The notes under the pieces: model-generated
Told to the model about the DNA's origin: nothing
Seen by the model: only the letters and a program-made list of their open reading frames with translations
Databases searched by the model: none
Shown here: positions 9,811 through 29,216 of the stretch, in pieces
How positions within the stretch are numbered: position 1 is the first letter of the stretch
How the letters are laid out: every line of letters starts with the position of its first letter
Source of the DNA: Candidatus Pelagibacter sp. HTCC7211
Lineage (GTDB): Bacteria; Pseudomonadota; Alphaproteobacteria; Pelagibacterales; Pelagibacteraceae
NCBI RefSeq assembly: GCF_000155895.1
Contig: NZ_DS995298.1
Coordinates: 1,290,001 to 1,322,000, forward strand
Length of the DNA stretch: 32,000 bases
Direction: 5' to 3'
Position numbers and translations under genes: made by a program

Positions 9811-10593
9811 ATGACAACAGGAACATCGGCATCTGGTACTTTTTATGTTTTAAATCAAAAAGAACAATCAATACCAATAGTCTTTATACATGGTGTTGGC
9901 CTTACTTATGAAATTTGGCAACCACAATTAGATTTTTTTACAAACTATAGTACTCTTGCATATGATATTTTGGGACATGGCAAATCTTCTTTAAAAAAAC
10001 AAAATATAAGTTTTGATGATTTTTCTGATCAACTAATCAAATTAATTGATGAGCTTAATTTTCAGAAAATTCATCTAGTTGGTTTTTCAATTGGCTCTTT
10101 AATTGCTAGAAATTTTGCAACTAAGTTTAATGATCGGTTACAATCATTGGTTCTTTTAGGTTCAATTTACAAAAGAACGGAGCAACAACAAAAAATAGTT
10201 AATCAAAGGTTTGAACAAGCAAAACAAGAATTAAAACTATCAAAACTAGCTCTTAAAAGATGGTTTACTGATAAATATCTAGAAAAAAATCCAGAAATTT
10301 ATGAAAAAATAAGTTCAATTTTGTCAGCTAATAACATGAACAATTTTTTAAAAGTTTATGAGCTATTTGTTAACCATAAAAATGATGAGGATTTTAATAA
10401 AATTACAGCTAGTACACTGGTTATGACGGGTGAATATGATATTGGCTCAACAGTAAAAATGTCTCAAGAATTAAATATTTTAATCTCTAAAAGTCAATTA
10501 AAGATCATTAAAGATGGAAAACATCTTTGTGGTATTGAGTGTGCTGATGATGTAAATTTAGCAATCAAAAATTTTATTAGATCTAATGACTAA
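9811..10593 (+). CDS. Alpha/beta-fold hydrolase
   Basis: 260 aa with the oxyanion region IVFIHGVG, the nucleophile elbow GFSIGS (G-x-S-x-G) and a C-terminal GKHLCGIE His region. Its 3' end overlaps the next gene by 8 nt. Confidence 0.85.
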   Translation: MTTGTSASGTFYVLNQKEQSIPIVFIHGVGLTYEIWQPQLDFFTNYSTLAYDILGHGKSSLKKQNISFDDFSDQLIKLIDELNFQKIHLVGFSIGSLIARNFATKFNDRLQSLVLLGSIYKRTEQQQKIVNQRFEQAKQELKLSKLALKRWFTDKYLEKNPEIYEKISSILSANNMNNFLKVYELFVNHKNDEDFNKITASTLVMTGEYDIGSTVKMSQELNILISKSQLKIIKDGKHLCGIECADDVNLAIKNFIRSND

Positions 10594-12067: not shown

Positions 12068-12174
12068 TCAGCATTAATTAACCTGTTTAAATTAGGATAA
12101 TTTTGTCATTGAATATTGGTTTTATTCATACTTAAATTGGTTTTTATAAATTGTTAACAATAAAGAGGAAGATA

Positions 12175-13365: not shown

Positions 13366-13378
13366 TTAATATCAAATT

Positions 13379-13415
13379 AAAAACCCCGGTAATTGTAAAT
13401 TGCTGGGGTTTTTTT
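13379..13415. terminator. Bidirectional rho-independent terminator between convergent genes
   Basis: AAAAA-CCCCGGTAATT-gta-AATTGCTGGGG-TTTTTTT. The stem is 11 bp (two G-U pairs). It is followed by a T7 run on the + strand and preceded by an A5 run that reads as a T-run on the - strand. It lies 14 nt after the SBP stop and 5 nt from the TauE stop. Confidence 0.85.
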
Positions 13416-13419
13416 ATGT

Positions 13420-13983
13420 TTAAATACTTCCTGTAATTCTTAAAATACCAAAAATTGATATTATTATTAAAAAATTAAACACTACTTTTCTATAAAGAGC
13501 TTCTTTGCTTTTAACAAAAAATTTATCTCCAATATAAACTCCAATTGGTAAAATTATTATCAATGGAAGAGTTCTATAAATTGTTATCATATCTACAATC
13601 CCTCCCAAAAAGCTTAAAACAAAAGCATATACATCTGTTAAAAAAAATAGTGCTGCTAAAGACCCTCTAATTACGGCTGGTTGTATACTGGTAACCAATA
13701 AAAATAGTGCAACAGGCATTCCACCTAATGTTGTTAATCCATTTAAGGTTCCAGAAATTATTCCTGTAAAAATTTTTGAGCCATCATTATTAATTTTTTG
13801 ATTTGAGTAGCCTTTCATTAATAATAAAGAAAAAAATATAATTATTACACATACATACAAATGAGTTGTTTGTGGTGATAAGTATTTTAATAAATATAAT
13901 CCAATTGGTGAACCAATTGTAATCCCTATCAATAGTTTAAAAAAAAAGTTCCAGTCTATTTTGTTCCAAATATAAGGTGCCAT
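13420..13983 (-). CDS. TauE/SafE (DUF81) sulfite-exporter-family permease, C-terminal ~3/4 as an intact ORF
   Basis: 187-aa hydrophobic ORF with TauE-like helices (GTLNGLTTLGGMPVALFLL). It is short for the family. Homologous coding sequence continues upstream (see next feature). Confidence 0.75.
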   Translation of the reverse strand: MAPYIWNKIDWNFFFKLLIGITIGSPIGLYLLKYLSPQTTHLYVCVIIIFFSLLLMKGYSNQKINNDGSKIFTGIISGTLNGLTTLGGMPVALFLLVTSIQPAVIRGSLAALFFLTDVYAFVLSFLGGIVDMITIYRTLPLIIILPIGVYIGDKFFVKSKEALYRKVVFNFLIIISIFGILRITGSI

Positions 13984-14181
13984 AAAAATACTTATGAAAA
14001 TCTCGAGAATTAATATAATCGGTACTACCTCTAATGCAGGAAGAATAAAAGAAAATCCAGAAATACAAGTTGCTGAAAATCCAAATCCATTAAACCCCCT
14101 TATTATCGAAGCTATAAAAACAGTAAAACTTATTAATAAAAATTCAGATAAATCTAAATTAAAGTATCACAAAAAATCCAT
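13984..14181 (-). pseudogene. 5' portion of the same TauE/SafE reading frame, cut off by an in-frame TGA at codon 5
   Basis: In the same frame as 13420-13983 the sequence reads ATG(14181-14179) GAT TTT TTG TGA(14169-14167). It then continues for 61 stop-free codons: YFNLDLSEFLLISFTVFIASIIRGFNGFGFSATCISGFSFILPALEVVPIILILEIFISIF. This is TauE-type TM1-TM2 with a Gly-rich motif, and it runs straight into Met 13983. No ATG/GTG/TTG lies between the TGA and 13983. Confidence 0.55.
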
Positions 14182-15345
14182 TTAAATTCTTTGTTTTAAA
14201 TCTGCTCTAAAAGTGGAAATAACAATAATTATTAAAAAAATAATACAAACTAAATTCATTGTTTTCCAACTAGTTAGGCTAATAAATATGCCAGCTGATA
14301 AACTTGCTATTGCTTGAACTGTGTAAACAATAAGATCATTAAAGCCTTGAGCTTTAAACTTTTCTTCTTCTTTGTAAGATAAAACTAATAAACTTGTTCC
14401 TGATATAAATAAAAAATTCCAACCAAATCCTAAAAAGATTAATGCTATTAAATAATTTTTAAAATTTTGCTCAAATAAACTTGTCAAAATTGTTATTAAA
14501 AACAAAAGAACACCTAAATACATTATTTTGCTATGTCCAAATTTTTTGATCAAATTTCCTGTGATTAATGAAGGTAAAAACATTGCCGCAATATGTAGCT
14601 GAATAACTAATCCAGTTTTTGCCAAACTAATTTTTTCCATTACATGCATGCTTATGGGTGTAGCTGTCATCAAAAATGACATCACCGCATAAGCAAAAGA
14701 TGATGCTATTAATGCTTGTAAAAATCTTGGTTGTGTAATTAATTCAAAATAACTTCGTGTATTTTTTTTAATTAAATTATTTGGTCTATGATTATCCTCA
14801 TAAAATAATAAAAAAATTGTTGAAGATAATGTCAATATTGCAAGTGCAACATATGAACCTGCATACAAATGATCTAAGATAATCTCTTTTGAAATATTTG
14901 CTAAATTTGGACCTATAAAAGCTGAACCAATCCCTGCTAATAATATTATTGATATAGCTTTTGGGGCCATATCTTTATCTACAGTTTCAACTGCAGCAAA
15001 ACGATATTGATGACTAAAAGCTACTCCTGCTCCAAGTAAGAAACATCCTAAATTAAATAATAAAAAACTTTCAATAATTATTGAGTATGATGCCATTAAT
15101 GATGCTAGAGAACTTCCAACTGAAGCAAGAATAAAACCTGCTCTTCTTCCAATAATACTCATAATCTTTGCGGCAAAAAATGCAAAGATCGCAATACCTA
15201 CAATCGATAATGCCATTGGCAAAGTTGCTAAAGATTTAATAGGACTGAATTGAGATCCAATAATTCCACTTAAAAATACTGTGACTGGTGCAGCGGTAAA
15301 AGCAAAAATCTGACTTAAAATCAGCAGCCAAAGATTTTTATTCAT
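14182..15345 (-). CDS. MFS transporter
   Basis: About 12 hydrophobic helices. The track start 15381 is a TTG giving MGHVHGRQVYVL. ATG 15345 (MNKNLWLLILSQIF) is preferred. The TAA stop (14184-14182) directly abuts the ATG of the TauE frame. Confidence 0.85.
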   Translation of the reverse strand: MNKNLWLLILSQIFAFTAAPVTVFLSGIIGSQFSPIKSLATLPMALSIVGIAIFAFFAAKIMSIIGRRAGFILASVGSSLASLMASYSIIIESFLLFNLGCFLLGAGVAFSHQYRFAAVETVDKDMAPKAISIILLAGIGSAFIGPNLANISKEIILDHLYAGSYVALAILTLSSTIFLLFYEDNHRPNNLIKKNTRSYFELITQPRFLQALIASSFAYAVMSFLMTATPISMHVMEKISLAKTGLVIQLHIAAMFLPSLITGNLIKKFGHSKIMYLGVLLFLITILTSLFEQNFKNYLIALIFLGFGWNFLFISGTSLLVLSYKEEEKFKAQGFNDLIVYTVQAIASLSAGIFISLTSWKTMNLVCIIFLIIIVISTFRADLKQRI

Positions 15346-15413
15346 TAAAACATATACTTGTCTGCCATGTACATGGCCCAAGCAATTGCAGCACCCAATA
15401 TAATATATTTCAT
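15345..15413 (-). CDS. Candidate 22-aa hydrophobic small protein (MKYIILGAAIAWAMYMADKYMF)
   Basis: An ATG at 15413 lies 6 nt after the LivM-like stop. The ORF has 22 sense codons and its TAA overlaps the MFS ATG (TAATG at 15347-15343). The segment is clearly more GC-rich than true spacers in this window. Confidence 0.35.
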   Translation of the reverse strand: MKYIILGAAIAWAMYMADKYMF

Positions 15414-15419
15414 ATTAAA

Positions 15420-16790
15420 TTATTTTATTTCTATTTTTTCAGGAAGTATACCTTTTGGTCGATACCTCATAATTAATAATAATCCAAGGCCCATCATTAA
15501 GAATCTAAAGTAAGGCACGCTTTCAATTAAATGAGCTTTAAGAGCGTTTGTTTCTGAAATACCTGCTGTAAAAAAATTAATTAAGAATAATGCAATTGGA
15601 GCAGCTTCAATCCATAAGAACCAAACTACAAAACCTCCTAAAATAGCACCAAAATTGTTCCCGCTTCCACCAACAATTACCATTACCCATATAAGAAATG
15701 TATATCTCATAGGTCTATAACTTCCAGGAGTAAACAAGCCATCCTGAGTAACTAACATCGCGCCAGCAATTCCAACTATTGCAGATCCTAAAATAAAAAT
15801 TAATAAATGTTGTTTAACTACATTTTTTCCCATAGCGTTTGCTGCTTCCTCATTATCTCTTATTGCTCTCATCATTCTTCCCCAAGGAGAATAAAGTGCT
15901 TTCTGAGTTAAAATTAAAAGAATTATAACCACTGTTAAGAATAAACCTGAGTAACATAATTTTACAAATACTGATGAGCCTTCGATAACAAGCTGATTTA
16001 ATGCTGATTGCCGATCTGATAAATTGGAAATTATTTCTAATTTTCCAGAATTAAATTTTTCAACTAAATTTATAAACCAATCTGTCGTTTGTAGATTAAC
16101 TTCATATGGAGCCGGCCTTTTTAAACCAATTACATTTTTAACGCCTCTTGTAAGCCAATCTTCGTGTTTAATTATAGCGATTACAATTTCTGAAATAAGA
16201 AGTGTAGCAATTGCCAAGTAATCAGCTCTAAGACCCAACGCTACTTTCCCAACAATAAAAGCTAATCCTCCAGCAAAGAATGCTCCAACAATCCAAGAAA
16301 ATAAAATAGGTAATCCAAATCCACCTAAAAAACCTGTTTTAGCAGGATCAACAGCTTCAATAGCTTCAATGCCTGGTTCTGCAGAAAATCTAATAAGCAA
16401 TATACCCGAAATTATTATTGCCGCGATGCTATAAGTTCTCACTTTAGATTTTTCAAATCTTTTTAAAATAAATCTGACAACTAAGACCATAACTACTATT
16501 AGCCATAAGCTCATTAAAATATCAAAACCACCAGCGCTCCATGCCTCTTGTACAGGATCGACAGATATTAATACTGCTGCAAGACCGCCTAATGCTGTAT
16601 ATCCCATAATTCCAAAGTTAATTAGTCCTGCATAACCCCATTGAATATTAGCTCCCATTGTCATTACTGCAGAAATTAAGCAAAGATTAAAAATAGATAA
16701 TGCAATATTCCAAGATTGAAATAATCCCACTAAGATAATTAAGCCCATCATAATACTGTAAGCCGCAATTACGTTTAAATTTTTTCTCAC
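15420..16790 (-). CDS. HAAT-family ABC transporter permease (LivM-like, long form)
   Basis: 456 aa, multi-TM, with the conserved RAIRDNEEAANAMG block. There is a ~70-aa hydrophilic insertion (HEDWLTRGVKNV...SALNQLVIEG). The GTG start overlaps the upstream stop (GTGA). Confidence 0.88.
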   Translation of the reverse strand: MRKNLNVIAAYSIMMGLIILVGLFQSWNIALSIFNLCLISAVMTMGANIQWGYAGLINFGIMGYTALGGLAAVLISVDPVQEAWSAGGFDILMSLWLIVVMVLVVRFILKRFEKSKVRTYSIAAIIISGILLIRFSAEPGIEAIEAVDPAKTGFLGGFGLPILFSWIVGAFFAGGLAFIVGKVALGLRADYLAIATLLISEIVIAIIKHEDWLTRGVKNVIGLKRPAPYEVNLQTTDWFINLVEKFNSGKLEIISNLSDRQSALNQLVIEGSSVFVKLCYSGLFLTVVIILLILTQKALYSPWGRMMRAIRDNEEAANAMGKNVVKQHLLIFILGSAIVGIAGAMLVTQDGLFTPGSYRPMRYTFLIWVMVIVGGSGNNFGAILGGFVVWFLWIEAAPIALFLINFFTAGISETNALKAHLIESVPYFRFLMMGLGLLLIMRYRPKGILPEKIEIK

Positions 16791-17797
16791 AATACTTTCC
16801 CTTTAAATATTCCAGAGGGTCTATAGAGTAGAACAATAACAAGTATCGAAAATGATACTGCAAACTTATAGTCTGTTGATAAAAGTTGAACTAAACTTTC
16901 AGGCTCCATACTCTCTGGCAACATATACATAAAAAATTTTTTGTAAGCGTAAGTTAAAAATATTTCTGAAAAAGCAATAACATATCCTCCCAAAAATGCT
17001 CCAAAAGGGTTTCCAATACCTCCAACGATTGCAGCAGCAAAAATAGGAAGCATATTGTTAAAGTATGTAAATGGTTTAAAACTTTTATCTAAACCATATA
17101 AAGCACCACCAATAGTTGCTAAAATTCCAGCAATTATCCACGTAATCATAACAATTTTCTTTGGATCTATGCCTGAAAGAAGTGCCAAATCTTCATTATC
17201 AGAATATGCCTTCATGCTTTTTCCTGTCTTCGTTTTGTTTAAAAACCAAAATAACAAAGAAACTAATACTATTGTAACAAATATTGTTAGCACTTGAGTT
17301 GATTTTAATGCAAGACCTTCGTTTAAACCTGTCATCTCTTTAAACTCACGTGCTTTAATAATAAATTTTTCTCCATCAAAAAATCTTCTATCTGATGGAC
17401 CAATAATAATTCTTACAACTGCTTGAGTGACAAACATAACCCCAATACTTACCATTGCCAGTTGAACAGGTGGACTTTTGTTTGTTCGATAATATTTAAA
17501 CACAAATTTATCAATACTGAACATGTATAAAATCATGAAAATAATCGCAAAAGGAATGGCTAATAGTGCTGTAGGTAGAATACCAAGTGAAATTCCTAAA
17601 GATTGGAAATACCATGTAAACAAAATAGTAATCATTGTACCAAATGACATCATGTCTCCAGTAGCAAAATTAGCAAATCTTAAGATACCATAAATTAATG
17701 TTACAAAAATTGCACCAAGGGCTAATTGAGATCCATAGGTTAGGGCTGGAATAAAAATATAATTAAGTAAAAGTATTATTGCGTTTAATATATCCAT
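16787..17797 (-). CDS. HAAT-family ABC transporter permease (LivH-like, long form)
   Basis: 336 aa with the blocks FANFATGDMMSFG and KAYSDNEDLALLSGI, plus an insertion (PSDRRFFDGEKFIIKAREFKEMTG). Confidence 0.88.
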   Translation of the reverse strand: MDILNAIILLLNYIFIPALTYGSQLALGAIFVTLIYGILRFANFATGDMMSFGTMITILFTWYFQSLGISLGILPTALLAIPFAIIFMILYMFSIDKFVFKYYRTNKSPPVQLAMVSIGVMFVTQAVVRIIIGPSDRRFFDGEKFIIKAREFKEMTGLNEGLALKSTQVLTIFVTIVLVSLLFWFLNKTKTGKSMKAYSDNEDLALLSGIDPKKIVMITWIIAGILATIGGALYGLDKSFKPFTYFNNMLPIFAAAIVGGIGNPFGAFLGGYVIAFSEIFLTYAYKKFFMYMLPESMEPESLVQLLSTDYKFAVSFSILVIVLLYRPSGIFKGKVL

Positions 17798-17798
17798 A

Positions 17799-18506
17799 CT
17801 ACCCGCCTAAGAATGAGCTTCTAACTCTTGGATCGTTTAATAATTCATTTCCTGTTCCTGAATATCGATTTTCTCCAGTTACTAAAACATAACCTCTATC
17901 AGAAATATTTAATGCTTGTTTTGCATTTTGCTCAACCATTAAGATTGCAACATTGGTTCTTTTTACTTTAATAATATGGTCAAACAATTCATCCATTACT
18001 ATTGGGGAAACACCTGCCGTAGGTTCATCTAACATTAAAACAGTTGGTTTAATCATTAAAGCTCTTCCAAGAGCAACTTGTTGTCTCTGACCACCTGACA
18101 ATTCTCCAACAAACTGATTTCTTTTTTCTTTTAAAACCGGAAATAGCTCATAAATTTCCTCAATAATATTTTTTACGTCATCATTAACTAGGAATGCACC
18201 CATTTCTAAATTTTCTTCAACTGTCATACCAGCAAATACATTTTTTGTTTGAGGAACGAATGAAATACCCTCTTTAACTCTATCTTGTGGAGATAATTTT
18301 GAAATATCTTTTCCGTCAATTTTTACTGATCCAGATTTTAAATTAAGTAAACCAAGCATAGCTTTCATAGCTGTAGATTTTCCAGCTCCATTTGGACCTA
18401 GTATAGAAACTATTTCACCTTTATTTACGTCTACTGAACATGAATTAATGATATCAGGTCCATTTCCATAACCACCTGTCATTTCAATTCCTTCAAAATA
18501 TGCCAT
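17799..18506 (-). CDS. ABC transporter ATP-binding protein (LivF-like)
   Basis: 235 aa with Walker A GPNGAGKST, signature LSGGQRQ, and Walker B LMLDEP. Confidence 0.92.
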   Translation of the reverse strand: MAYFEGIEMTGGYGNGPDIINSCSVDVNKGEIVSILGPNGAGKSTAMKAMLGLLNLKSGSVKIDGKDISKLSPQDRVKEGISFVPQTKNVFAGMTVEENLEMGAFLVNDDVKNIIEEIYELFPVLKEKRNQFVGELSGGQRQQVALGRALMIKPTVLMLDEPTAGVSPIVMDELFDHIIKVKRTNVAILMVEQNAKQALNISDRGYVLVTGENRYSGTGNELLNDPRVRSSFLGG

Positions 18507-19294
18507 TACTTTGTATCCTTAAGTTTGGAGCCTCTTCCAAGATAACTTTCAATTACCTTTTCATCCTTTTTTGCTTCTTCAACTGATCCTTCAAATAAAA
18601 CTGATCCTTCAGCCATTACTATTACTGGATCACACAATCTACCAATAAAATCCATATCATGCTCAATCATACAAAAAGTATAGCCCTTCTCCCTATTTAG
18701 CTTTTCAATCGCAGTACCAAGATCTTTTAATAAAGTTCTATTTACTCCAGCACCAACCTCATCAAGTAGCACAAGTTTTGCATCTACCATCATCGTTCTT
18801 CCAAGTTCTAACAATTTTTTCTGTCCGCCAGATAGATTTCCAGCTAATTCATTTGATAAATGTCCTAAATTCAAAAAATTGACTACTTCTTTTGCTTTGT
18901 CTTTAATCACAGCTTCTTCTTGAGCTACCAGGCCAGGTTTAAACAATGCTGTCATTATTTTTTCTCCTGATTGATTTCCAGGAACCATCATCAGATTTTC
19001 TAAAACAGATAAATTGGTAAATTCGTGAGCAATTTGAAAAGTTCTTAAAAGTCCTTTTGAAAATAATTCATATGATGGAACATCAGTTATATTTTCTTCG
19101 TCAAAAGTAACATATCCATTTGAAGATTTTAAATTTCCAGCAATTAAATTAAATAATGTCGTCTTACCTGATCCGTTAGGTCCAATTATTCCTGTAATAC
19201 TTCCTCGTTTAACATTTAAAGAACAATCAGATACAGCAGCAATACCTCCAAAATATTTCGACAAATTACTAATCTCTAAAATATTTTCAGACAT
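18506..19294 (-). CDS. ABC transporter ATP-binding protein (LivG-like)
   Basis: 262 aa with Walker A GPNGSGKTT, signature LSGGQKK, Walker B VLLDEV, and a LivG-type C-terminal extension. Confidence 0.92.
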   Translation of the reverse strand: MSENILEISNLSKYFGGIAAVSDCSLNVKRGSITGIIGPNGSGKTTLFNLIAGNLKSSNGYVTFDEENITDVPSYELFSKGLLRTFQIAHEFTNLSVLENLMMVPGNQSGEKIMTALFKPGLVAQEEAVIKDKAKEVVNFLNLGHLSNELAGNLSGGQKKLLELGRTMMVDAKLVLLDEVGAGVNRTLLKDLGTAIEKLNREKGYTFCMIEHDMDFIGRLCDPVIVMAEGSVLFEGSVEEAKKDEKVIESYLGRGSKLKDTK

Positions 19295-19299
19295 CTAAT

Positions 19300-20067
19300 T
19301 TATTTATTTAATCTTCGATGAATACTGTCTAAAGTTTTTTCAAGGGATTTATAAAAACCTGCTTTAGTTAATTCCTTCACACCTTGTTCATTCAATCCTT
19401 TTGGCGTTTGAGAATCTTTAACTAAATTTTTTAAGTTTTTTTTTGAATTTACCACAGCATCTTCAGATAATGCTAAAAACAGAGAGGTAATATATTTTTG
19501 AGCATTACTTCTTTTTACTCCTCTTTTTACTAGCCAATCAGTCATAACTCTCAACACCTCATAAAAAGGTGCCATCATTCCAGAAGTTGACCAAAAATTT
19601 ATTGAAGATTTTTCATTTTTAATTTCGACTGTTGTTCCAAGCTTATTAAAAAATGCTTTTACTTTTGGATTAGGAGGGCAAATAGGTACCGGACCTTTCT
19701 TTAATGCAATTGGAGGAAGAGGTATTGCTCTAACAATTGATACTTTTTTGTTAATTGCTTTTTTTAATTGAGACAAAGTTATAGTTGAAATAAAGCTAAC
19801 AACAGTTTGTTTGGATTTAAATTTTAAATCTTTTATAATTTTTTCACCAACAATTGGTGTAACAGATAAAAATACCCAATTAGACTGATCTACAATTTGT
19901 TGGTTATCTTTAGCGATAACTATTTTTTTAAACTTTCTTTTTAAACCTTGTGCTATTTTTTTATTTCTTAGTGAAATAATTATTTTTTTGAAAGAAATAT
20001 TTGATTTACATATTCCAGTAATCACTGAAGCAGCAATTTTTCCTGTACCAATAAAACCTAAAATCAT
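19300..20067 (-). CDS. Pyrroline-5-carboxylate-reductase-family (ProC-like) NAD(P)H oxidoreductase, divergent
   Basis: 255 aa with an N-terminal dinucleotide-binding motif ILGFIGTGKIA, followed by a P5CR-type dimerisation region. The usual SPGGTT motif is degenerate here (TPKGLNEQ). Confidence 0.65.
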   Translation of the reverse strand: MILGFIGTGKIAASVITGICKSNISFKKIIISLRNKKIAQGLKRKFKKIVIAKDNQQIVDQSNWVFLSVTPIVGEKIIKDLKFKSKQTVVSFISTITLSQLKKAINKKVSIVRAIPLPPIALKKGPVPICPPNPKVKAFFNKLGTTVEIKNEKSSINFWSTSGMMAPFYEVLRVMTDWLVKRGVKRSNAQKYITSLFLALSEDAVVNSKKNLKNLVKDSQTPKGLNEQGVKELTKAGFYKSLEKTLDSIHRRLNK

Positions 20068-20099
20068 AATTTTGGTTACTTTATATTGATTATATTGAA

Positions 20100-21011
20100 T
20101 TAATTAACAAAAAAAGAACCTCTAATTCTTAGTAATTCTCTACTTAATTCCTTATTTTCTTTGAAAGGTTTTCTACCATGAAGCCAGAAATAATTATTTG
20201 CGATCACAGAGTAACCAACAGGTAATTTTGTAATTATTTTATTTTTACTCTCCTCTAATCCATCAGATAATCTCTGCAAAAAATTTCCTTGTTCCATATT
20301 TTGTGGTTCAGGAAATTGATCTATGTATGAAATTGTTGGTCTTCCCTCTCCATCTGACGAAAAAACTGGGTGTTCAACTTTATAATCAATATTTTTACTT
20401 TTTGGTGATCCCCAAACAAACTTTTGTTTTCCTATGGGATCATTATATAAATCGAAACAATGTTCCCAGTCATCAAGGTGTAACATTGCAGTCTCTCCAC
20501 CTTCTACATTTTGTTCATCAATTTTAGTCATAATTAACCAATCAGTAACATCTTTGACATATGTTCCATCTGTGTGAAGATCCATATTTCTATAAGCTTT
20601 TCTCAAATATGAGTCGCTAGTATCTTCATGTTTTACGTGAAAACGAGCGTAATATTTTCCAGTCATGGCATCATGATTTGGCACACCTATAAGATGAGCG
20701 ATTGCAGTTGACAACTTAACTAAAAATGTATCATTAATTTTTGTAGTTATGTTTTTTGGTCCTATGATAAAACAACCTGTCGATCTATCTCTAATGATTG
20801 AATTCATCAAATCACTTAATTTATTGTTTGTTAAATCATCTAAACTTTTAGCTAAAGTAAATCTTGTAAATGGTTTGAGTTCTAATGCTGTTAAATCAAA
20901 TTTATTAAAAGGAAAAATTAATTTATCTATAATATCATTTTCTAAACTAATCTTAACGATCCTATTTGAATGATCATGCTCTTGAATATCTATACCCGTA
21001 ATTTTTTGCAT
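20100..21011 (-). CDS. csiD: CsiD-like Fe(II)/2-oxoglutarate dioxygenase (glutarate 2-hydroxylase family)
   Basis: 303 aa. Long colinear matches to E. coli CsiD as I recall it: LSTAIAHLIGVPNHDAMTGKYYARF, DSYLR, MDLHTDGTYV (H-x-D), IMTKIDEQNVEGGE, LHLDDWEH, YIDQF, and FWLHGR (distal His). Physiological substrate is unverified. Confidence 0.75.
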   Translation of the reverse strand: MQKITGIDIQEHDHSNRIVKISLENDIIDKLIFPFNKFDLTALELKPFTRFTLAKSLDDLTNNKLSDLMNSIIRDRSTGCFIIGPKNITTKINDTFLVKLSTAIAHLIGVPNHDAMTGKYYARFHVKHEDTSDSYLRKAYRNMDLHTDGTYVKDVTDWLIMTKIDEQNVEGGETAMLHLDDWEHCFDLYNDPIGKQKFVWGSPKSKNIDYKVEHPVFSSDGEGRPTISYIDQFPEPQNMEQGNFLQRLSDGLEESKNKIITKLPVGYSVIANNYFWLHGRKPFKENKELSRELLRIRGSFFVN

Positions 21012-21051
21012 TCTAAATTTTATTTTACCTTAGTTTATAAATCAATTTTAA

Positions 21052-21387
21052 TTAGATATAATTATTAATAATAGCCATACAAAAAGCAGAGAAAATTGTA
21101 GGATAAACAAAGTTTTTCTTTGAAATGAAAAAAACAAACAAAGATAACAATACAACAAGTAATCTACTGGAATAACTTGCATCTATTAAAATACCAGCAG
21201 GAAAAATTATAGTTCTTGCTATTAATGCTGCCAAGGTTGCGTAGGCTAAACAATTAAACCATTTAAAAAGTTTTGAGGTTTCTTTTATGCCCTCAGATGT
21301 AATAGCACCCAAAAATCTAGATAAAAATGTTGCTAAAGAAGTTACCAGGATTGCATATACTATATTAGCTGACACTGTGCTCTCCAA
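21052..21387 (-). CDS. azlD: AzlD-family branched-chain amino-acid transport protein
   Basis: 111 aa with 3-4 helices. It overlaps the upstream AzlC-like gene by 23 nt, the canonical azlCD arrangement. Confidence 0.75.
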   Translation of the reverse strand: MESTVSANIVYAILVTSLATFLSRFLGAITSEGIKETSKLFKWFNCLAYATLAALIARTIIFPAGILIDASYSSRLLVVLLSLFVFFISKKNFVYPTIFSAFCMAIINNYI

Positions 21388-22069
21388 CTAGGTAAGCTAT
21401 AGTTCCACCAATCACACCTGCCAATAAAATTGACCACTCGGGTGAAAATAAATATATAATTGGTCCTAATATAATTCCAAGCAAAACTGATAGAGTTATT
21501 GGTATATTTTTTGATGCCCCAACCATCATGCATAAAAAATAAACTGGATTAAGAATTGCTAATCCCATCATCATATCTTTATTCAAATACTCTGATAAAG
21601 AAAAACCCAAAAATGTGCCAATAACTGATACACTTACTGTTGCACTTCCAATGCCAATCCAGTAATCAATTCTGTATTTTTTTGGAATTTGTTTGTAATT
21701 ACTTTTCATGATCAGCCAAGCAGAAACAGCAATAAAATGACAAGAAAAGTAGTATTTCCACTTAGGTTGACTTTTGTGCATCATTAAAGGAAATAAAGAT
21801 ACAGCCATAGGGTAAAGTCTTGCATTAACAAACCAAACCGCTAAAAAAATATTTAATAAGGATGCTCCAATTAACATGGACTCAGCCATAACTAATGAGC
21901 CAGGCAAAGCATAAGTTAAAACAGTTGAAAAAATACTCTCCTGAATGTTAAAACCTAAATTTTTAAAAAGAGCTCCAATAGCTACAAAACAACAAGTGAG
22001 AGCTATTGCTGGACTGTCATGAGTAAATATTGAGCTATATCCTTTTAAGAAAAAACTTTTCTTAATCAT
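21365..22069 (-). CDS. azlC: AzlC-family branched-chain amino-acid exporter subunit
   Basis: 234 aa, multi-TM, with AzlC-like blocks (ALPGSLVMAE, NARLYPM). The ATG overlaps the LivF-like stop by 1 nt (TAATG). Confidence 0.78.
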   Translation of the reverse strand: MIKKSFFLKGYSSIFTHDSPAIALTCCFVAIGALFKNLGFNIQESIFSTVLTYALPGSLVMAESMLIGASLLNIFLAVWFVNARLYPMAVSLFPLMMHKSQPKWKYYFSCHFIAVSAWLIMKSNYKQIPKKYRIDYWIGIGSATVSVSVIGTFLGFSLSEYLNKDMMMGLAILNPVYFLCMMVGASKNIPITLSVLLGIILGPIIYLFSPEWSILLAGVIGGTIAYLVGEHSVS

Positions 22070-22854
22070 TATCCACCAAGGAACAATCTACCAACGTCAG
22101 GATTTTTAAGTAAATCATCTCCCTTTCCTGCAATTGCAGTTTGTCCCGACACCAAAACATATCCTATATCTGCAAACTCAAGACCTTTTTTAGCATTTTG
22201 CTCTACTAGAATAATAGTTTTTTTTTCATTTTCTTGAAGATCTCTTAAAATTTCAAAAACCATATCTATGTATCTTGGTTCCAAACCAATCGATGGTTCA
22301 TCTACTAACAATACTGATGGCTTCATAACTAACGCTCTAGATATTTCTAGCAATCTTCTTTCACCACCTGATAAAACTTTTGCTGGCTGGTTTCTTCTAT
22401 TTCTTAATCTTTCATATTTTTGAAAAATTCTTTCAGCTTCTTGATATGACTCATCCGTTTTTTCTTTAATATATCCTCCCATTAACAAGTTTTCTTCGAC
22501 AGTCATGTCAGGAAATACTGAATTATCTTGAAGTATATAAGCTATACCAACTGACTTTAATTTTTCAGCAGGAGTAAGATTTGTAATCTCTTTTCCTTCT
22601 ATTTCAATCTGACCAGAAAAAATATTTGTAAATCCATAGATTGAATGAAGTATAGTTGACTTACCTGCTCCGTTTGGACCAATCAAACATAAAGACTGAG
22701 CTTTATTTACAAATAAATCAAAATTATGCAAAATTTCCATTTTTCCATAACCAGCATTTAAATTATTTATAGTTAAGTGAATTTCTTCAGGCGATAATTT
22801 TTTTAAATCCTCTGGTGTTGGAGCTTTTCCTAATACTTCATATTGATTTGCCAT
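22069..22854 (-). CDS. ABC transporter ATP-binding protein (LivF-like, with ~25-aa N-terminal extension)
   Basis: 261 aa with Walker A GPNGAGKST, signature LSGGERR, and Walker B LLVDEP. Confidence 0.92.
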   Translation of the reverse strand: MANQYEVLGKAPTPEDLKKLSPEEIHLTINNLNAGYGKMEILHNFDLFVNKAQSLCLIGPNGAGKSTILHSIYGFTNIFSGQIEIEGKEITNLTPAEKLKSVGIAYILQDNSVFPDMTVEENLLMGGYIKEKTDESYQEAERIFQKYERLRNRRNQPAKVLSGGERRLLEISRALVMKPSVLLVDEPSIGLEPRYIDMVFEILRDLQENEKKTIILVEQNAKKGLEFADIGYVLVSGQTAIAGKGDDLLKNPDVGRLFLGG

Positions 22855-23594
22855 TATTGAGCTCCTAAATACGCGTCTATAACACGTTTATCATTTTTAA
22901 TTTCATTTGGAGAACCATTAGCTAACATTTTACCATGAGCTAAGCAAAAAATGTCTTCTGCTAACTGCATTATTACTCTCATATTATGCTCGATCACTAA
23001 AAGTGTTATTCCAAAATCTTGATTTACCTTAATTAATCTATCGATTATTCCATTTATCAATGTCGGATTAATTCCCGCTGTTGGCTCATCCAATAATAAC
23101 ATTTCAGGCTCATTCATTAATGCCATTGCAAGTTCTAATAACTTTTGTTGACCAAATGAGAGGTCCCCTGCTCTAAGTTTTCTTTTTTGAAATAACCCTA
23201 CGAAATTTAATAAGTTTTCAGCTTTATCTGTTAATTCTTGTGGAATTTTAGAAAATATTTTCATTAAGTCTGCGTCACTACCTTTGTGACTAATAAGCAT
23301 ATTTTCTATGCAGTTAAGCTTTCCATAAATTCTAGTCTGTTGAAATGTCCTTAATAATCCTAGCTTTGCAATTACGGGGACTGGCAACTCTGAGACTTCT
23401 TTGCCATTAAATTTTATTGATCCATTATCTATAGGATAAGTTCCTACAATCGAATTAAATAATGTGGTTTTGCCTGAGCCATTTGGCCCAATTAATCCAA
23501 CTATCTTACCTTTTTCAACATTCATTGAGATGTCAACATTAGCTTTAACACCACCAAATGATTTACTTACATTACTTACTTCTAAAATACTCAC
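22854..23594 (-). CDS. ABC transporter ATP-binding protein (LivG-like)
   Basis: 246 aa with Walker A GPNGSGKTT, signature LSFGQQK, and Walker B LLLDEP. Confidence 0.92.
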   Translation of the reverse strand: MSILEVSNVSKSFGGVKANVDISMNVEKGKIVGLIGPNGSGKTTLFNSIVGTYPIDNGSIKFNGKEVSELPVPVIAKLGLLRTFQQTRIYGKLNCIENMLISHKGSDADLMKIFSKIPQELTDKAENLLNFVGLFQKRKLRAGDLSFGQQKLLELAMALMNEPEMLLLDEPTAGINPTLINGIIDRLIKVNQDFGITLLVIEHNMRVIMQLAEDIFCLAHGKMLANGSPNEIKNDKRVIDAYLGAQ

Positions 23595-24640
23595 TTAAGT
23601 TCTACCTGTGCTTTACGATCTTTTTCATCAACTACTTCACCAAATCTCTCTGGATATTTTTCTCTTAACCATCCCATAATTCCCTCAGGGAAATAAATTA
23701 CAATCACAACAATCAAGACTCCTAAAGCTACATACTGCCAACCTAAAAAGAATGTCCAAAAGCCTTCTTTAAATATATGAAAAACAGTTGCACCAATAAT
23801 TGGACCCCAAAGTGTTCCTTTGCCACCAAGTATTGCCATCAATACCATGAATACTCCCATCTCTCTTCCATCGAACGCAACATCAGTAGAGTCGATATAT
23901 CCAACTAAGCCGCCCATTATTCCACCTGCTAATCCACAAAAGAATGCTGAGATCATCCAGCCAATAATTTTGTATTTCATTGTTTCAATACCCATTGCTT
24001 CAGCTTTGTCCTCATTATCTCTGATAGCGTTAAGTATTAATTTAAATCTTGTAGGATATATTGAACGAACAGCAATGAATGTAAGTACCAATGTAAAGAA
24101 GCTTAAGAAATAAAAAAATTCACCTCTTGATTCTAAACTTCCTACATCAGGAAATGGTGGAGTAGTGAAGCCTTGTCCAGCTCCAATGATCTCAATTCCT
24201 CCAGAAATTTCACCTGCTGCAACTCCTAATCCTAATGTACAAATTGCAAAATAATGTCCTCTAAGTCCTAAAATAGAGTATCCAATTAAACCTGCTACAA
24301 TAGTTGGTACAACTGCAGCTACTATCAATCCAACAGCCATTCCTTGAAAAAACTGAGTTGGAGTATGAACAAATGTTTTTTCACCCCCACTTTCTGTCCA
24401 CTCTGCTAATGGAAAAAACATTCCAACTTGTACAGAAGCACATAGATACATGCCAAGACCATAAAAGAGAATATTTCCAAATGAATTATAGCCCATTTCA
24501 CCACCCTGAATATTCCAGGTTGTAGCAAGAATAATTAATACACAAAGTATTGATAACTGAACTTTAAAAGCTGGAAATATAAATGGAGCGGCTATACCAA
24601 AAATTAAAATTCCAATATATAAAATTAAATTATTTTTCAT
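23591..24640 (-). CDS. HAAT-family ABC transporter permease (LivM-like)
   Basis: 349 aa, multi-TM, with the conserved NAIRDNEDKAEAMG block. A 4-nt overlap joins it to the downstream gene. Confidence 0.9.
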   Translation of the reverse strand: MKNNLILYIGILIFGIAAPFIFPAFKVQLSILCVLIILATTWNIQGGEMGYNSFGNILFYGLGMYLCASVQVGMFFPLAEWTESGGEKTFVHTPTQFFQGMAVGLIVAAVVPTIVAGLIGYSILGLRGHYFAICTLGLGVAAGEISGGIEIIGAGQGFTTPPFPDVGSLESRGEFFYFLSFFTLVLTFIAVRSIYPTRFKLILNAIRDNEDKAEAMGIETMKYKIIGWMISAFFCGLAGGIMGGLVGYIDSTDVAFDGREMGVFMVLMAILGGKGTLWGPIIGATVFHIFKEGFWTFFLGWQYVALGVLIVVIVIYFPEGIMGWLREKYPERFGEVVDEKDRKAQVELK

Positions 24641-25533
24641 TATTTTAAGTATTCTCTTTTCCTTGATAATTTAAATCTTCTGTAAACAAGTATTAAAACT
24701 AGAAGTAAAAATACAGATCCTATTCTAAATTCTGTTCCTAAAATATAATCAGCGAATTCTTCAAAAACACCTAATCCCATACCTGACATTGCAACACCCG
24801 GTAAATTTCCTAATCCAGCAATAATGACAATCATAAATGATCTTATTGTGTATGGTAAACCCATATAAGGATGGATAGTAAATGTTATGGATATTAATGC
24901 ACCAGCGACACCACAAAGGGCTGCATTGATACCAAAAGTAGCTGCATAAACTTTTTCTGTATCTACGCCTAAAATCTTTGCTGCTCTTGCATTTTGTGCT
25001 GTAGCTCTAATTGCACGACCAAGCTTCGATTTTTTCATATAAATTACTAAACAAATTGCGAATAAAACACTTATAAAAGCTGAAAATATTTTTGAATTTG
25101 GCAATACAACATTATTATTAAATAACATAGTTGTTCCATAATCTGAATTTGCGAGAACAACATCAGCTCCAAATGCAAAGTTCATTAATTGCATGAAAAG
25201 AATACTTATTCCAAAAGTAGCTAAAATAGAGATAAATAAATCCCTATCTACTACTTTATTAATTACAAGTTTGTAAATTGCTATACCTACAAAGAACATT
25301 ATTATTGGAGATACAATTACTCCCCAAGCTGGATGAATTCCATATAGATACATGAAGTAAGCAATGTATCCACCTAATATAACAAGATCTCCTTGAGCAA
25401 TATTAATTATATTCATTACCCCCCATTGAAGCGCCATACCATATGCAATCAATGCAAATAAAATTCCAAGTAAAACTCCATCCAAACATGCTTGAACAGA
25501 AATCATTGGATATTGAAAAACCATGAAATCCAT
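24640..25533 (-). CDS. HAAT-family ABC transporter permease (LivH-like)
   Basis: 297 aa with NIINIAQGDLVILGGY and RATAQNARAAKILGV blocks. A 1-nt overlap joins it to the downstream gene. Confidence 0.9.
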   Translation of the reverse strand: MDFMVFQYPMISVQACLDGVLLGILFALIAYGMALQWGVMNIINIAQGDLVILGGYIAYFMYLYGIHPAWGVIVSPIIMFFVGIAIYKLVINKVVDRDLFISILATFGISILFMQLMNFAFGADVVLANSDYGTTMLFNNNVVLPNSKIFSAFISVLFAICLVIYMKKSKLGRAIRATAQNARAAKILGVDTEKVYAATFGINAALCGVAGALISITFTIHPYMGLPYTIRSFMIVIIAGLGNLPGVAMSGMGLGVFEEFADYILGTEFRIGSVFLLLVLILVYRRFKLSRKREYLK

Positions 25534-25543
25534 AATGAACCTT

Positions 25544-25582
25544 TAAAAAAATACCCCCTATATATAATATATTAGGGGGTAT
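25544..25582 (-). terminator. Intercistronic hairpin + U-run (partial terminator/attenuator) between the binding-protein gene and the permease genes
   Basis: ATACCCCCTA (25551-25560) and TAGGGGGTAT (25573-25582) are exact reverse complements around a 12-nt AT loop. On the - strand the hairpin is followed by T7 (25550-25544), then AAAGG and the ATG at 25533. Confidence 0.75.
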
Positions 25583-25596
25583 TTATAGATTTGTTT

Positions 25597-26835
25597 TTAT
25601 CTTTTAGACCACGAAGGAATTGGGTGAATTAACTTAGCTGACGCCCATTTAGTTGGAGCAACAACTTTGTTTTCACATTTTCCTGCATCATCACACATCA
25701 CTTGGAAAAGTACCATTGGCTTATCAACATTTTGACCACCTTCTGCAAATTTTATATTTCCATAAAAAGTTTGCATATTAGTAGCTGCAAGAGCGTCTCT
25801 AACTTTCTTTTGATCAAAAGAATCTGCTCTCTCAAATGCATCTTTAAATACCAATAGGGCAGCTGATGACTCTGCTGCTTGATATGGAGGTGCATAACCA
25901 AACTCTTTAGTAAAGTCTGCATCATAAGTCATACCATCTTTAAAGAAATCATCTTTATAAGTTAATGTTTTGTGCCACTGAGAAGCGCATAAGGCATACT
26001 GTGAGTTTTTACCATGTTGCTTTGATAATTTAGCTGCATCGCAGTGTGTCATAGCTAACATTGGAACATCTACCTTCATCTCAGATATTTGTCTGATAGC
26101 AGTTAGAGCACCTTTTGTGTGACCAGAAACAACTAAAACATCTGGTTTCATTTGTTTCACTTTTACTAAAGTCGCAGCCATATCATTTAGCTCTTTTGGT
26201 AATTTATCATCAATTACTTTTTTAGAGCCAGTTCTCTTAATTGCATCTAAAACACCAAGTCTTACGTCTTGAGAAAATGCATCTTGTTCAAACGCCATTG
26301 CAACAGTAACTCCTTTTCCATTATTCTTTTCAACCGCTAGATCTATAGCAACATCAAGATATAAATTAGCAGGAGCTAATACGGCGAATAGATATTTGTA
26401 ACCTTTTGTGAACAAAGATCTAGAAGCACCATTTGCTTCAACCATTGGAACACCGTATTTTTCAGTTACAGGCGCAATCGCTTTTGTTAAACCAGAACTG
26501 TAAGGGCCAAGCATAAACTCAACACCGTCTTGTGATATTAATCTTTCTGCAAGCTGTGCAGCTCTTTTTGGGTTTGACTCATCATCATAATAGATAATGT
26601 CAAACTTATAAGTCTTTCCACCAACTTTAACACCACCCATGCTATTAATTCTGTCAACGGCCATGTTATAACCGTTTTGAGTATGAACACCATTAGATGA
26701 ATATTTACCAGTTAATGAAATTGCAGCACCTAAAATAATTTTGTCACCAACAACTTTTGCAAAAGATGCAACTGAAGTTGAGAATAAAATCACTAATGCA
26801 GAAACAAAACTTAAAATTATTTTATTTAATCTCAT
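25597..26835 (-). CDS. ABC-transporter substrate-binding protein (LivK/Peripla_BP_6 family)
   Basis: 412 aa. A signal peptide MRLNKIILSFVSALVILFSTSVASFA is followed by a type-I PBP fold (LGAAISLTGKYSSNG, MLGPYSSG). The RBS AAAGAGGAAATAAA lies upstream. It is the first gene of an SBP-H-M-G-F operon. Confidence 0.9.
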   Translation of the reverse strand: MRLNKIILSFVSALVILFSTSVASFAKVVGDKIILGAAISLTGKYSSNGVHTQNGYNMAVDRINSMGGVKVGGKTYKFDIIYYDDESNPKRAAQLAERLISQDGVEFMLGPYSSGLTKAIAPVTEKYGVPMVEANGASRSLFTKGYKYLFAVLAPANLYLDVAIDLAVEKNNGKGVTVAMAFEQDAFSQDVRLGVLDAIKRTGSKKVIDDKLPKELNDMAATLVKVKQMKPDVLVVSGHTKGALTAIRQISEMKVDVPMLAMTHCDAAKLSKQHGKNSQYALCASQWHKTLTYKDDFFKDGMTYDADFTKEFGYAPPYQAAESSAALLVFKDAFERADSFDQKKVRDALAATNMQTFYGNIKFAEGGQNVDKPMVLFQVMCDDAGKCENKVVAPTKWASAKLIHPIPSWSKR

Positions 26836-26924
26836 TTTATTTCCTCTTTAATTAATTAATTATTTTCTTATTAAATAAACAAATTTAATTTTATGCAAGA
26901 GGCATTAAGCATCACTAATTAGTG

Positions 26925-27539
26925 TTAATATTGTTGAATTACAGCAATAATAATTGCAATGATAATTAAAACACTCGCAGAAATTGTATTAATTACTTTT
27001 GGATTTGCTTTTATCCAAACAATTAATTTTCTAGCAAGCATAGCATAAGCAACTAAAGATAAAAAATCTAAAACTACATAAGTTGTGATTAAAATAAAGA
27101 ATTGAACAACATAATTTGAATTAAAATCAATAAACTGTGGAAAAATTAATGGAAAAAACATCCAAGCCTTAGGACTTGTGCCTGCAACTAAAAAACCATC
27201 TCTAAAAAAAGAAAAAAAACTTTTTGATGAAATATTATTTGAACTTATATCTTTTGGTTTTGAGTTATAAAGATCATAAGCAAGATATAATAAATAAATT
27301 ATTCCTATCCATTTAAAAATATTTAAAAAATTTGGATTATCTAAAAAAAATGAGCCAATGACAAAGATGACAAGAGTTGCCTGAATAAAGTTTGCACTTA
27401 TATCTCCTAATGCAGTCCAAATACATTTTTGAACACCATAATTCATAGAATAAGAAATTATGACAATTCTTGGTGTACCTGGTGTAATAAATAAAAATAA
27501 GATTATTTGTAAAAATAGAAAATAGTTTATGGGGAACAT
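26925..27539 (-). CDS. LysE/RhtB-family amino-acid exporter
   Basis: 204 aa with about 6 helices. The N-terminal motif FITPGTPRI corresponds to the family's PGP(N) block. Confidence 0.8.
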   Translation of the reverse strand: MFPINYFLFLQIILFLFITPGTPRIVIISYSMNYGVQKCIWTALGDISANFIQATLVIFVIGSFFLDNPNFLNIFKWIGIIYLLYLAYDLYNSKPKDISSNNISSKSFFSFFRDGFLVAGTSPKAWMFFPLIFPQFIDFNSNYVVQFFILITTYVVLDFLSLVAYAMLARKLIVWIKANPKVINTISASVLIIIAIIIAVIQQY

Positions 27540-27553
27540 TTTAAGTATGCGTG

Positions 27554-27600
27554 GATAGTCCTTAAAAACCGGGAGCTAAAGATGGCTAAGAAGGACTATC
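27554..27600. promoter_or_regulatory. GC-rich structured element (10-bp perfect stem enclosing 27 nt) in the LysE/DUF2805 divergent spacer; class unknown
   Basis: GATAGTCCTT (27554-27563) and AAGGACTATC (27591-27600) are exact reverse complements. The interior AAAAACCGGGAGCTAAAGATGGCTAAG can form a second small stem (AGCT/GGCT). The element stands out against otherwise A/T-only spacer DNA. Confidence 0.4.
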
Positions 27601-27663
27601 AAATACATAATATCACTCTCTAAAAAAAATGCATTAAACATTTTTTTCAAATATAAAGGATTT

Positions 27664-27960
27664 ATGAAAAAAAAAGGTCACACCCCTATTACCAGGGTCA
27701 AAAATCCAGAGCCAGATGTAAATGACCCAGATTGGGTTATTTGGGCAGCTTGGGCTGACCGGATCACTTTTGAAGATATTGAAAAGAAGACTGGGAAAAC
27801 AGAGTCTGAGGTAATTAAAATTATGAGACGATCTATTAAGCCTGCCTCATTCAGGTTGTGGCGAAAACGAGTTAATCAAAAAAGTATTAAACACCGAAAA
27901 AAATTTGAATACTCAAGAAAACAAATTACTAGTAAAATTAAAAAGAATGATTATTTATAA
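27664..27960 (+). CDS. DUF2805 / TIGR03643-family small protein
   Basis: 98 aa. The block WVIWAAWADRITFEDIEKKTGKTESEVIKIMRRSIKPASFRLWRKRV matches the conserved core of this family as I recall it. Confidence 0.75.
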   Translation: MKKKGHTPITRVKNPEPDVNDPDWVIWAAWADRITFEDIEKKTGKTESEVIKIMRRSIKPASFRLWRKRVNQKSIKHRKKFEYSRKQITSKIKKNDYL

Positions 27961-27963
27961 TTC

Positions 27964-28218
27964 ATGAAATTAGTAACTATTTATACAGGTCCTCTTTGCA
28001 ATTACTGTGATGCTGCTAAAAGATTATTAGCTAGAAATAATGTAGAATATAAAGAAATTAACATTGCAACAGTTGAAGGTGCTATGGAAGAAATGATTAA
28101 AAAAGCAAATGGTAAGAGAACAATTCCACAAATCTTTTTTGATGACCAGCACATTGGTGGTTATGATGAAACCAGAGCTTTGGAAAAAGAGAATAAATTA
28201 TTAGAATTACTGAAATAA
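27964..28218 (+). CDS. grxC: Glutaredoxin (GrxC-type) with a C-N-Y-C active site
   Basis: 84 aa. It is colinear with E. coli Grx3 (IYTxxxCxYCxxAKxLL, TIPQIFFDDQHIGGYDE). The active site reads CNYC rather than the usual CPYC. Confidence 0.88.
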   Translation: MKLVTIYTGPLCNYCDAAKRLLARNNVEYKEINIATVEGAMEEMIKKANGKRTIPQIFFDDQHIGGYDETRALEKENKLLELLK

Positions 28219-28241
28219 AAAAAGTTTAAAATTAATTCAAA

Positions 28242-29213: not shown

Positions 29214-29216
29214 AAA

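Follow-up and report, generated by a model that had tools for sequence, protein, structure and literature searches.

A probable dicarboxylate-import operon with a predicted glutarate 2-hydroxylase and an adjacent pyrroline-5-carboxylate reductase-family gene in Candidatus Pelagibacter sp. HTCC7211

We analysed a 32,000-nucleotide stretch of the genome of Candidatus Pelagibacter sp. HTCC7211 (the window; positions 1,290,001 to 1,322,000 of the forward strand of contig NZ_DS995298.1, assembly GCF_000155895.1), in which a gene for a CsiD-family Fe(II)/2-oxoglutarate dioxygenase is followed by a gene for a pyrroline-5-carboxylate (P5C) reductase-family (P5CR-family) protein, here called ProC-like, within a long run of transporter genes. 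An earlier note on this DNA had proposed that the two enzymes form a single import-coupled module that hydroxylates an amino-acid-derived compound other than glutarate and reduces an imine. We think it likely, rather, that the run is the known SAR11 operon for dicarboxylate import and glutarate hydroxylation, and that ProC-like is a proline-forming reductase not tied to CsiD. The glutarate part of this reading, in which the first ABC system imports dicarboxylates including glutarate and CsiD hydroxylates glutarate, is held with high confidence; the assignment of ProC-like as SAR11's proline-forming reductase, which draws on its fold, its NCBIfam equivalog, its gene contexts and the literature on SAR11 proline synthesis, is on balance favoured.

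SAR11 is the most abundant heterotroph of the surface ocean, and its carbon-uptake operons therefore matter for models of the marine carbon cycle. The operon, the specificity of its importer and the hydroxylase activity are already known from published work: a cadaverine/lysine route through glutarate was proposed in 2021, and the dicarboxylate-binding protein and the glutarate hydroxylase were characterised in 2024. The present analysis adds that this architecture is shared by a second major SAR11 lineage and by every sufficiently long locus among 80 GTDB species, that the csiD position is variable, and that ProC-like is separable from csiD and belongs to the P5CR subfamily NF005063.

The minus-strand string and its counterpart in strain HTCC1062

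Open reading frames (ORFs) of at least 80 amino acids were scanned against Pfam in the region 346-12067 and against Pfam and/or NCBIfam in the region 10586-30059. The window has a G+C content of about 30%, and its minus strand carries a single co-directional string that runs from a LysE/RhtB gene at 27539 down to an MFS gene at 14182; all genes of the string score far over the curated Pfam cutoffs, with matches far beyond chance. The gene set and placement given in the earlier note held up: AzlC, AzlD, the CsiD-family and the P5CR-family genes lie between two HAAT systems, a complete importer upstream and the ATPase genes of the second system downstream. In the direction of the string, the features are as follows.

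27536-27618, minus strand: rhtB RNA motif (Rfam RF01814)
26925-27539, minus strand: LysE/RhtB-type exporter (PF01810, E = 1.8e-20; under the RhtB and LeuE equivalog cutoffs)
25597-26835, minus strand: HAAT-family substrate-binding protein, the counterpart of SAR11_1361 by position (Peripla_BP_6, E = 1.6e-47)
24640-25533 and 23591-24640, minus strand: two permeases of the first HAAT ABC importer (BPD_transp_2)
22854-23594 and 22069-22854, minus strand: two ATPases of the first HAAT ABC importer (ABC_tran/BCA_ABC_TP_C)
21365-22069, minus strand: AzlC-family membrane protein (PF03591, E = 2.7e-20)
21052-21387, minus strand: AzlD-family membrane protein (PF05437, E = 5.5e-13)
20100-21011, minus strand: CsiD/GlaH-family Fe(II)/2-oxoglutarate dioxygenase, 303 amino acids (PF08943, NF002814)
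19300-20067, minus strand: ProC-like, P5C-reductase-family NAD(P)H oxidoreductase, 255 amino acids (PF03807 and PF14748, NF005063)
18506-19294 and 17799-18506, minus strand: two ATPases of the second HAAT ABC system (Pfam)
16787-17797 and 15420-16790, minus strand: two permeases of the second HAAT ABC system (Pfam)
14182-15381, minus strand: MFS transporter, the last gene of the string (Pfam)
12151-13365, plus strand: convergent HAAT-type substrate-binding protein, the counterpart of SAR11_1346 by position (LivJ-type subfamily match, NCBIfam)

Spacings read off the sequence are 40 nt between the AzlD and CsiD genes, 32 nt between CsiD and ProC-like, and 5 nt between ProC-like and the next ATPase gene, the latter two just as the note had them. 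Base 22069 is common to the start of the AzlC gene and the end of the upstream ATPase ORF, and for AzlD the gene callers chose a later start that gives a protein of 107 amino acids. We found no convincing terminator within the string (27500-14200, minus strand), which is compatible with its co-transcription and is no proof of it; we infer that the genes are transcribed together. The best sigma-70-like match considered as an internal csiD promoter, TTGGCA-17-TATAAT at 21234-21206, lies inside azlD, some 195 nt upstream of csiD; matches of this kind are rarer here than in shuffled sequence (59 found, 80 expected), so this one was not counted.

Judged by where it lies, how many genes it holds and how long the region is, the string (27618 to 14182) appears to be the SAR11 transporter operon that was published as SAR11_1346-1361 of strain HTCC1062. 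There are 16 ORFs in the 14,685 bp that separate the start of the 12151 binding-protein gene from that of the 26835 binding-protein gene, and the published context of SAR11_1346 to SAR11_1361 spans 14,635 bp and 16 locus tags, with csiD as SAR11_1354 (Clifton et al. 2024, Nature, PMC11485210, Extended Data Fig. 9); if the tags are counted upward from SAR11_1346, csiD falls on 1354 and its ProC-like neighbour on 1353. The two strains belong to the same organism group, and the two loci share their gene order, with an rhtB motif and rhtB gene upstream, csiD between azlCD and a small oxidoreductase gene, and two HAAT ABC systems with binding proteins at both ends. The paper that described the rhtB RNA motif in HTCC1062 also places proC, livM and livK downstream of rhtB there (Meyer et al. 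2009, PMC2704228).

Clifton et al. (PMC11485210) found that SAR11_1361 binds C4 and C5 dicarboxylates with a dissociation constant below 10 nM, that it also binds glutarate and that it does not bind amino acids, and that SAR11_1346 is a broad amino-acid binder. They also showed by in vitro 1H nuclear magnetic resonance (NMR) that SAR11_1354 fully converts glutarate plus 2-oxoglutarate into 2-hydroxyglutarate and succinate. The first HAAT system of the window is complete (a binding protein, two permeases and two ATPases) and occupies the same place relative to rhtB and azlCD as SAR11_1357-1361, and its permeases and ATPases keep 88-94% identity even in SAR11 loci that have diverged (L094 and L095; such L-numbers are labels of the loci that we fetched). 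By its positional orthology to SAR11_1361, the 25597-26835 protein is predicted to be a C4/C5-dicarboxylate binder.

The CsiD-family dioxygenase and glutarate

The dioxygenase scores 456.3 bits against PF08943 (cutoff 27, E = 5e-137) and 453.5 bits against the NCBIfam GlaH equivalog NF002814 (cutoff 333), over the cutoffs of the same two families to which the CsiD proteins of E. coli and Pseudomonas putida belong (PDB 6GPE, 1JR7; PMC6265302; Zhang et al. 2018, PMC5974017). Residues 20-314 of E. coli CsiD align to it without gaps, and 128 of the 295 positions are identical (43.4%; structure match E = 6e-81). The E. coli enzyme holds its iron by His160, Asp162 and His292, binds 2-oxoglutarate through a salt bridge to Arg309, and binds the distal carboxylate of glutarate through Arg311 and the backbone of Gly163 (Knorr et al. 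2018, PMC6265302). All six of these contact residues are conserved in the window protein: H146, D148 and H278 correspond to the iron ligands, leaving the H-x-D...H triad intact as the earlier note had reported, and R295, R297 and G149 correspond to Arg309, Arg311 and Gly163. The same note had suggested comparing the active site with that of E. coli CsiD and had favoured a substrate other than glutarate; the comparison indicates no altered substrate, and nothing in the protein's sequence suggests one.

Together, the conserved residues and the activity of SAR11_1354 make it most likely that the window enzyme is a normal glutarate 2-hydroxylase. The note had allowed that its own proposal would fail if the enzyme showed normal glutarate hydroxylase kinetics and a co-regulated lhgO/gabD locus existed elsewhere; this is borne out in part, by the end-point glutarate activity of the orthologue SAR11_1354. 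The existing automatic annotation (GlaH for the dioxygenase, P5C reductase for its neighbour) agrees with the assignments made here, and near-identical proteins from Candidatus Pelagibacter sp. carry the name glutarate dioxygenase GlaH.

Only in its context does the window gene depart from E. coli. There csiD heads csiD-lhgO-gabDTP under CsiR, whereas the window gene stands in a transporter string with a dicarboxylate ABC importer and without lhgO, gabDT or csiR. No homologue of lhgO (DAO family), gabT or csiR, and no DAO-family, aminotransferase or GntR gene, was present among the scanned ORFs (346-30059), so that the usual csiD partners are missing from the locus, as the note had said. LhgO/YgaF, an FAD-containing, quinone-linked L-2-hydroxyglutarate dehydrogenase, would supply the step after CsiD; the gene that adjoins csiD here differs from it in fold and cofactor. 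An aldehyde dehydrogenase gene is found at 10586-12067, on the strand opposite to csiD, and its product falls under every NCBIfam equivalog cutoff.

We propose that the operon would work as follows. The first HAAT system, with the 25597-26835 binding protein, would import C4/C5 dicarboxylates, glutarate among them, and CsiD would use Fe(II), O2 and 2-oxoglutarate to convert glutarate into L-2-hydroxyglutarate, succinate and CO2; the L-2-hydroxyglutarate would then be oxidised to 2-oxoglutarate by an enzyme other than those assigned in the window. Exogenous glutarate, as well as glutarate from the breakdown of cadaverine or lysine, might thus enter central metabolism. Cadaverine is probably turned into succinate along the lysine degradation pathway in both HTCC1062 and HTCC7211, and the glutarate 2-hydroxylase step is listed in the published pathway figure (Noell et al. 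2021, PMC8437039). ProC-like would make proline and would lie between the two importers through operon compaction, with no mechanistic tie to CsiD, and the second ABC system would import amino acids with the 12151-13365 binding protein. The earlier idea of an import-coupled module would thus survive in one part, the coupling of the hydroxylase to an importer, and not in the other, the joining of CsiD and an imine reductase into one module.

The ProC-like reductase and its separability from CsiD

ProC-like matches both P5CR domains (PF03807 at 46.2 bits and PF14748 at 40.6 bits, cutoff 25) and scores 334.3 bits over the full length (1-255) of NCBIfam NF005063 (PRK06476, "pyrroline-5-carboxylate reductase"; cutoff 254). 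Its AlphaFold2 model (pLDDT 96, pTM 0.90) was compared with the PDB by Foldseek, and all of the top 50 matches were P5C reductases with TM-scores of about 0.80-0.87 (normalised to query length), the value being 0.85 for both 2ahr and PYCR1. Like canonical ProC (TIGR00112; 2AHR, human PYCR1 5UAU), it is thus predicted to have a Rossmann and a P5CR dimerisation domain, and it conserves the G-x-x-G-x-G motif and the C-terminal Arg; unlike canonical ProC, to which it is 19-23% identical, it belongs to the separate subfamily NF005063 and reads TPKGLNEQ in the loop where canonical enzymes have SPGGTT(I/L)AG. An alignment of 25 NF005063 members, drawn from a search of 1.8 billion cluster representatives, gives the loop consensus TPGGLNEQ, with N226 invariant and T221, G224, E227 and Q228 at least 90% conserved, and shows no variation at G4, G7 and G9 of the nucleotide-binding motif. 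The degenerate loop to which the note had drawn attention is therefore real, but it is not specific to this protein; the alignment marks it as a signature of the subfamily and as neither decay nor a one-off. All SAR11 have been scored as having proline synthesis (PMC6018831), and one P5C reductase cluster appears in a list of the SAR11 core.

The conservation of the locus was surveyed in the loci of the 80 closest GTDB species, whose CsiD proteins are 84-96% identical to that of the window; HTCC1062 is not one of the 80. Both csiD and the ProC-like gene are present in 73 of the 80, the other 7 ending at a contig edge, and the whole string is in the same order in every one of these loci that is long enough to show it. 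In a more distant single-cell genome (L094) the pair is also present, with CsiD 73% and ProC-like 67% identical to the window proteins, and a 168-amino-acid pentapeptide-repeat protein (L094:8264-8770) is inserted between azlD and csiD. Among the fetched sequences is a 2.8-kb contig (L024, VMCO01000080.1) of a metagenome-assembled genome labelled "Flavobacteriaceae bacterium", whose azlCD-csiD is 94-95% identical to SAR11 genes and is probably a binning contaminant.

Two loci of another SAR11 clade (L095 and L096) have the whole string and a ProC-like protein (58% identical) in place, with csiD substituted: its slot (L095:9277-9915, L096:3191-3829) holds a gene for a secreted, signal-peptide-bearing protein of 212 amino acids that has no Pfam match. 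The idea that this ORF is a truncated remnant of CsiD was rejected for L095 on the BLASTP result (E = 0.14 against CsiD) and the lack of a Pfam match. In the freshwater Ca. Fonsibacter (L093), ProC-like (39% identical) stands alone among gcvTHP, terC and aroC, CsiD and ABC genes being absent. The csiD position is thus a variable slot in SAR11, and ProC-like is separable from CsiD.

In other bacteria, none of eight loci with an NF005063 gene has CsiD within 6-7 kb of it. Four of the eight (L089, L090, L092 and L098) have Pro_racemase-family and/or DHDPS-family genes beside the NF005063 gene, both kinds being near it in L089, L092 and L098. These four are hydroxyproline-type clusters from unrelated bacteria or metagenome contigs, with ProC-like at 7001-7800 or 6001-6807, and some of them also carry DAO, Aldedh or GntR genes. 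In two others (L091 and L097) the NF005063 gene follows dapD-dapE, with proS nearby, and in the last two (L087 and L088) it is next to a PNPOx-like gene. These contexts and that in Fonsibacter speak for a part in proline or related amino-acid metabolism, and for a role that does not depend on glutarate. The pairing of csiD with a ProC-like gene holds in the fetched marine SAR11 loci that cover both positions with csiD present, and was seen nowhere beyond that group. The note had also held that its proposal would fail if the adjacency were not conserved outside this genome; beyond marine SAR11, it is not. SAR11 genomes are extremely compact, and for this reason short gaps and a common orientation are weak evidence that two genes serve one pathway.

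Several observations weigh against the reading that we prefer. ProC-like falls under the cutoff of the classical proC model TIGR00112 (98.7 bits, cutoff 196.75). The canonical loop SPGGTT, which we take to be the binder of the P5C/proline carboxylate in PYCR1, aligns to TPKGLN in ProC-like, with no Thr-Thr. We found no experimental reports on the NF005063 subfamily, and to our knowledge none of its members has been assayed. In each of the 79 fetched marine SAR11 loci spanning the two genes, 73 of the 80 GTDB species loci among them, CsiD and ProC-like lie side by side (at a gap of 18-32 nt where measured, in the window and L094), and this universal adjacency, with no lhgO at the locus, leaves room for a functional link. 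SAR11_1353, 1354 and 1361 were equated with the window genes by position, gene count and region length and not by sequence, and the published assay of SAR11_1354 was an end-point NMR measurement (1 mM substrates, 16 h), which leaves room for a better physiological substrate. Finally, Clifton et al. (PMC11485210) call SAR11_1353 an "FAD-dependent oxidoreductase", a label that misfits the Rossmann NAD(P)H P5CR fold found next to csiD in the window, which comes from a different strain; either the description is loose or a different gene is present in HTCC1062. Every csiD-bearing SAR11 locus that we examined has a NAD(P)H Rossmann/P5CR-fold protein at the SAR11_1353 position.

There is, in our estimate, a small chance that NF005063 proteins are not P5C reductases at all, and act either on another cyclic imine or as a new NAD(P)-linked enzyme that converts L-2-hydroxyglutarate into 2-oxoglutarate. 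If true, a non-P5C activity would be new for the P5CR fold, and the gap left by the absent lhgO would be closed.

The first of these possibilities, which we regard as unlikely, is that ProC-like reduces delta1-pyrroline-2-carboxylate or delta1-piperideine-6-carboxylate to proline or pipecolate and serves the amino-acid importer and not CsiD. The altered loop would suit it, as would the 5-nt distance to the first ATPase gene of the second system, and the Pro_racemase/DHDPS neighbours found in half of the non-SAR11 loci are typical of hydroxyproline pathways that yield pyrroline-2-carboxylate; by analogy, NF005063 proteins might reduce that compound in those hydroxyproline-type clusters, an activity so far seen only in other enzyme families. 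On the other hand, no Pro_racemase, DAO or DHDPS gene occurs among the scanned ORFs of the window, and in Fonsibacter, L091 and L097 the gene stands in housekeeping surroundings that suit ordinary proline synthesis. P5CR-family enzymes were also considered as pyrroline-2-carboxylate reductases in their own right and set aside, since the known ones, LhpH and LhpK, fall in other families (PMC5144071).

The second possibility, to which we give a lower probability still, follows the role proposed for SAR11_1353 by Clifton et al. (PMC11485210), in whose hands the protein was insoluble: ProC-like would be a NAD(P)-linked L-2-hydroxyglutarate/2-oxoglutarate oxidoreductase that replaces LhgO. Its constant place tight downstream of CsiD in marine SAR11, the lack of an lhgO gene among the scanned ORFs and a loop unlike that of canonical P5C reductases all speak for this. 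Yet ProC-like stays put where CsiD is absent (L095 and L096) and stands alone in Fonsibacter, and NF005063 genes elsewhere lie beside proline, hydroxyproline or dap genes and never beside CsiD. Moreover, NAD-linked oxidation of L-2-hydroxyglutarate is thermodynamically unfavourable, and we know of no 2-hydroxyacid dehydrogenase with the P5CR fold.

The original proposal, that CsiD and then ProC-like act on an imported cyclic or amino-acid-derived acid by hydroxylation and imine reduction, takes its appeal from two adjacent, co-directional genes with importers on either side and from the absence of csiR, lhgO and gabDT from the scanned ORFs, but it is very improbable and largely refuted: glutarate is the substrate of the orthologous enzyme, the binding-protein orthologue binds it along with other dicarboxylates, the window CsiD retains every residue that contacts glutarate or 2-oxoglutarate, the two genes occur separately, and on chemical grounds hydroxylation of a dicarboxylate at C2 yields no imine.

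Flanking transporters and other features

The rhtB motif at 27536-27618 is a full-length match (88 bits against a gathering score of 55, E = 1e-16). It forms a bulged hairpin upstream of the LysE/RhtB gene that touches the start codon of that gene and heads the string; a terminator or a regulatory element has been suggested as its role (Meyer et al. 2009, PMC2704228). At the other end, the second HAAT system consists of two ATPases, which are about 40% identical to those of the first system, and two permeases, and the string has no binding-protein gene for it. The convergent 12151-13365 gene, which is followed by a strong hairpin terminator (13379-13413, a 16-pair stem and then a T run), probably encodes the binding-protein partner of this second system.

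The MFS gene is the most variable member of the string (61-80% identity, compared with 93-95% for its neighbours), and its position is taken by a second LysE gene in L094 and by a thioredoxin gene in L095. Within 13420-15381 on the minus strand there is also a TauE/SafE ORF of 187 amino acids that covers only positions 59-235 of the 237 in the profile and looks N-terminally truncated; it occurs in only a few SAR11 loci (L001, L002, L069, L074 and L080). The 13420-15381 end of the string is thus a variable spot.

Outside the string, a co-directional cluster of enzyme genes on the plus strand (346-12067) encodes a GMC oxidoreductase, two EamA transporters, a 2OG-Fe(II) oxygenase of the DIOX_N type, a DUF218 protein, a luciferase-like monooxygenase, a TPP enzyme, a methyltransferase, an AA_synth protein (PF06684), an alpha/beta hydrolase and an aldehyde dehydrogenase. 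Of its last five genes, which begin with that for the TPP enzyme and end with that for the aldehyde dehydrogenase, all but the methyltransferase gene also adjoin the locus in L094. On the other side, at 29217-30059 on the minus strand, lies a gene for a 280-amino-acid protein with an inverse-autotransporter beta-domain (PF11924, E = 8e-35), and after it an ORF of 323 amino acids (28242-29213) with no Pfam match; a PF11924 outer-membrane protein is unusual in a streamlined SAR11 genome. Three ORFs past 30100 lie outside the scanned regions, and identical copies of them in L001 carry the annotations SelR and Hist_deacetyl. In the Fonsibacter locus (L093:11661-20768), a block of pdxH-like, aroC, rhomboid and dxs genes is present twice in tandem, with the first pdxH copy truncated, probably the result of misassembly or of a recent duplication.

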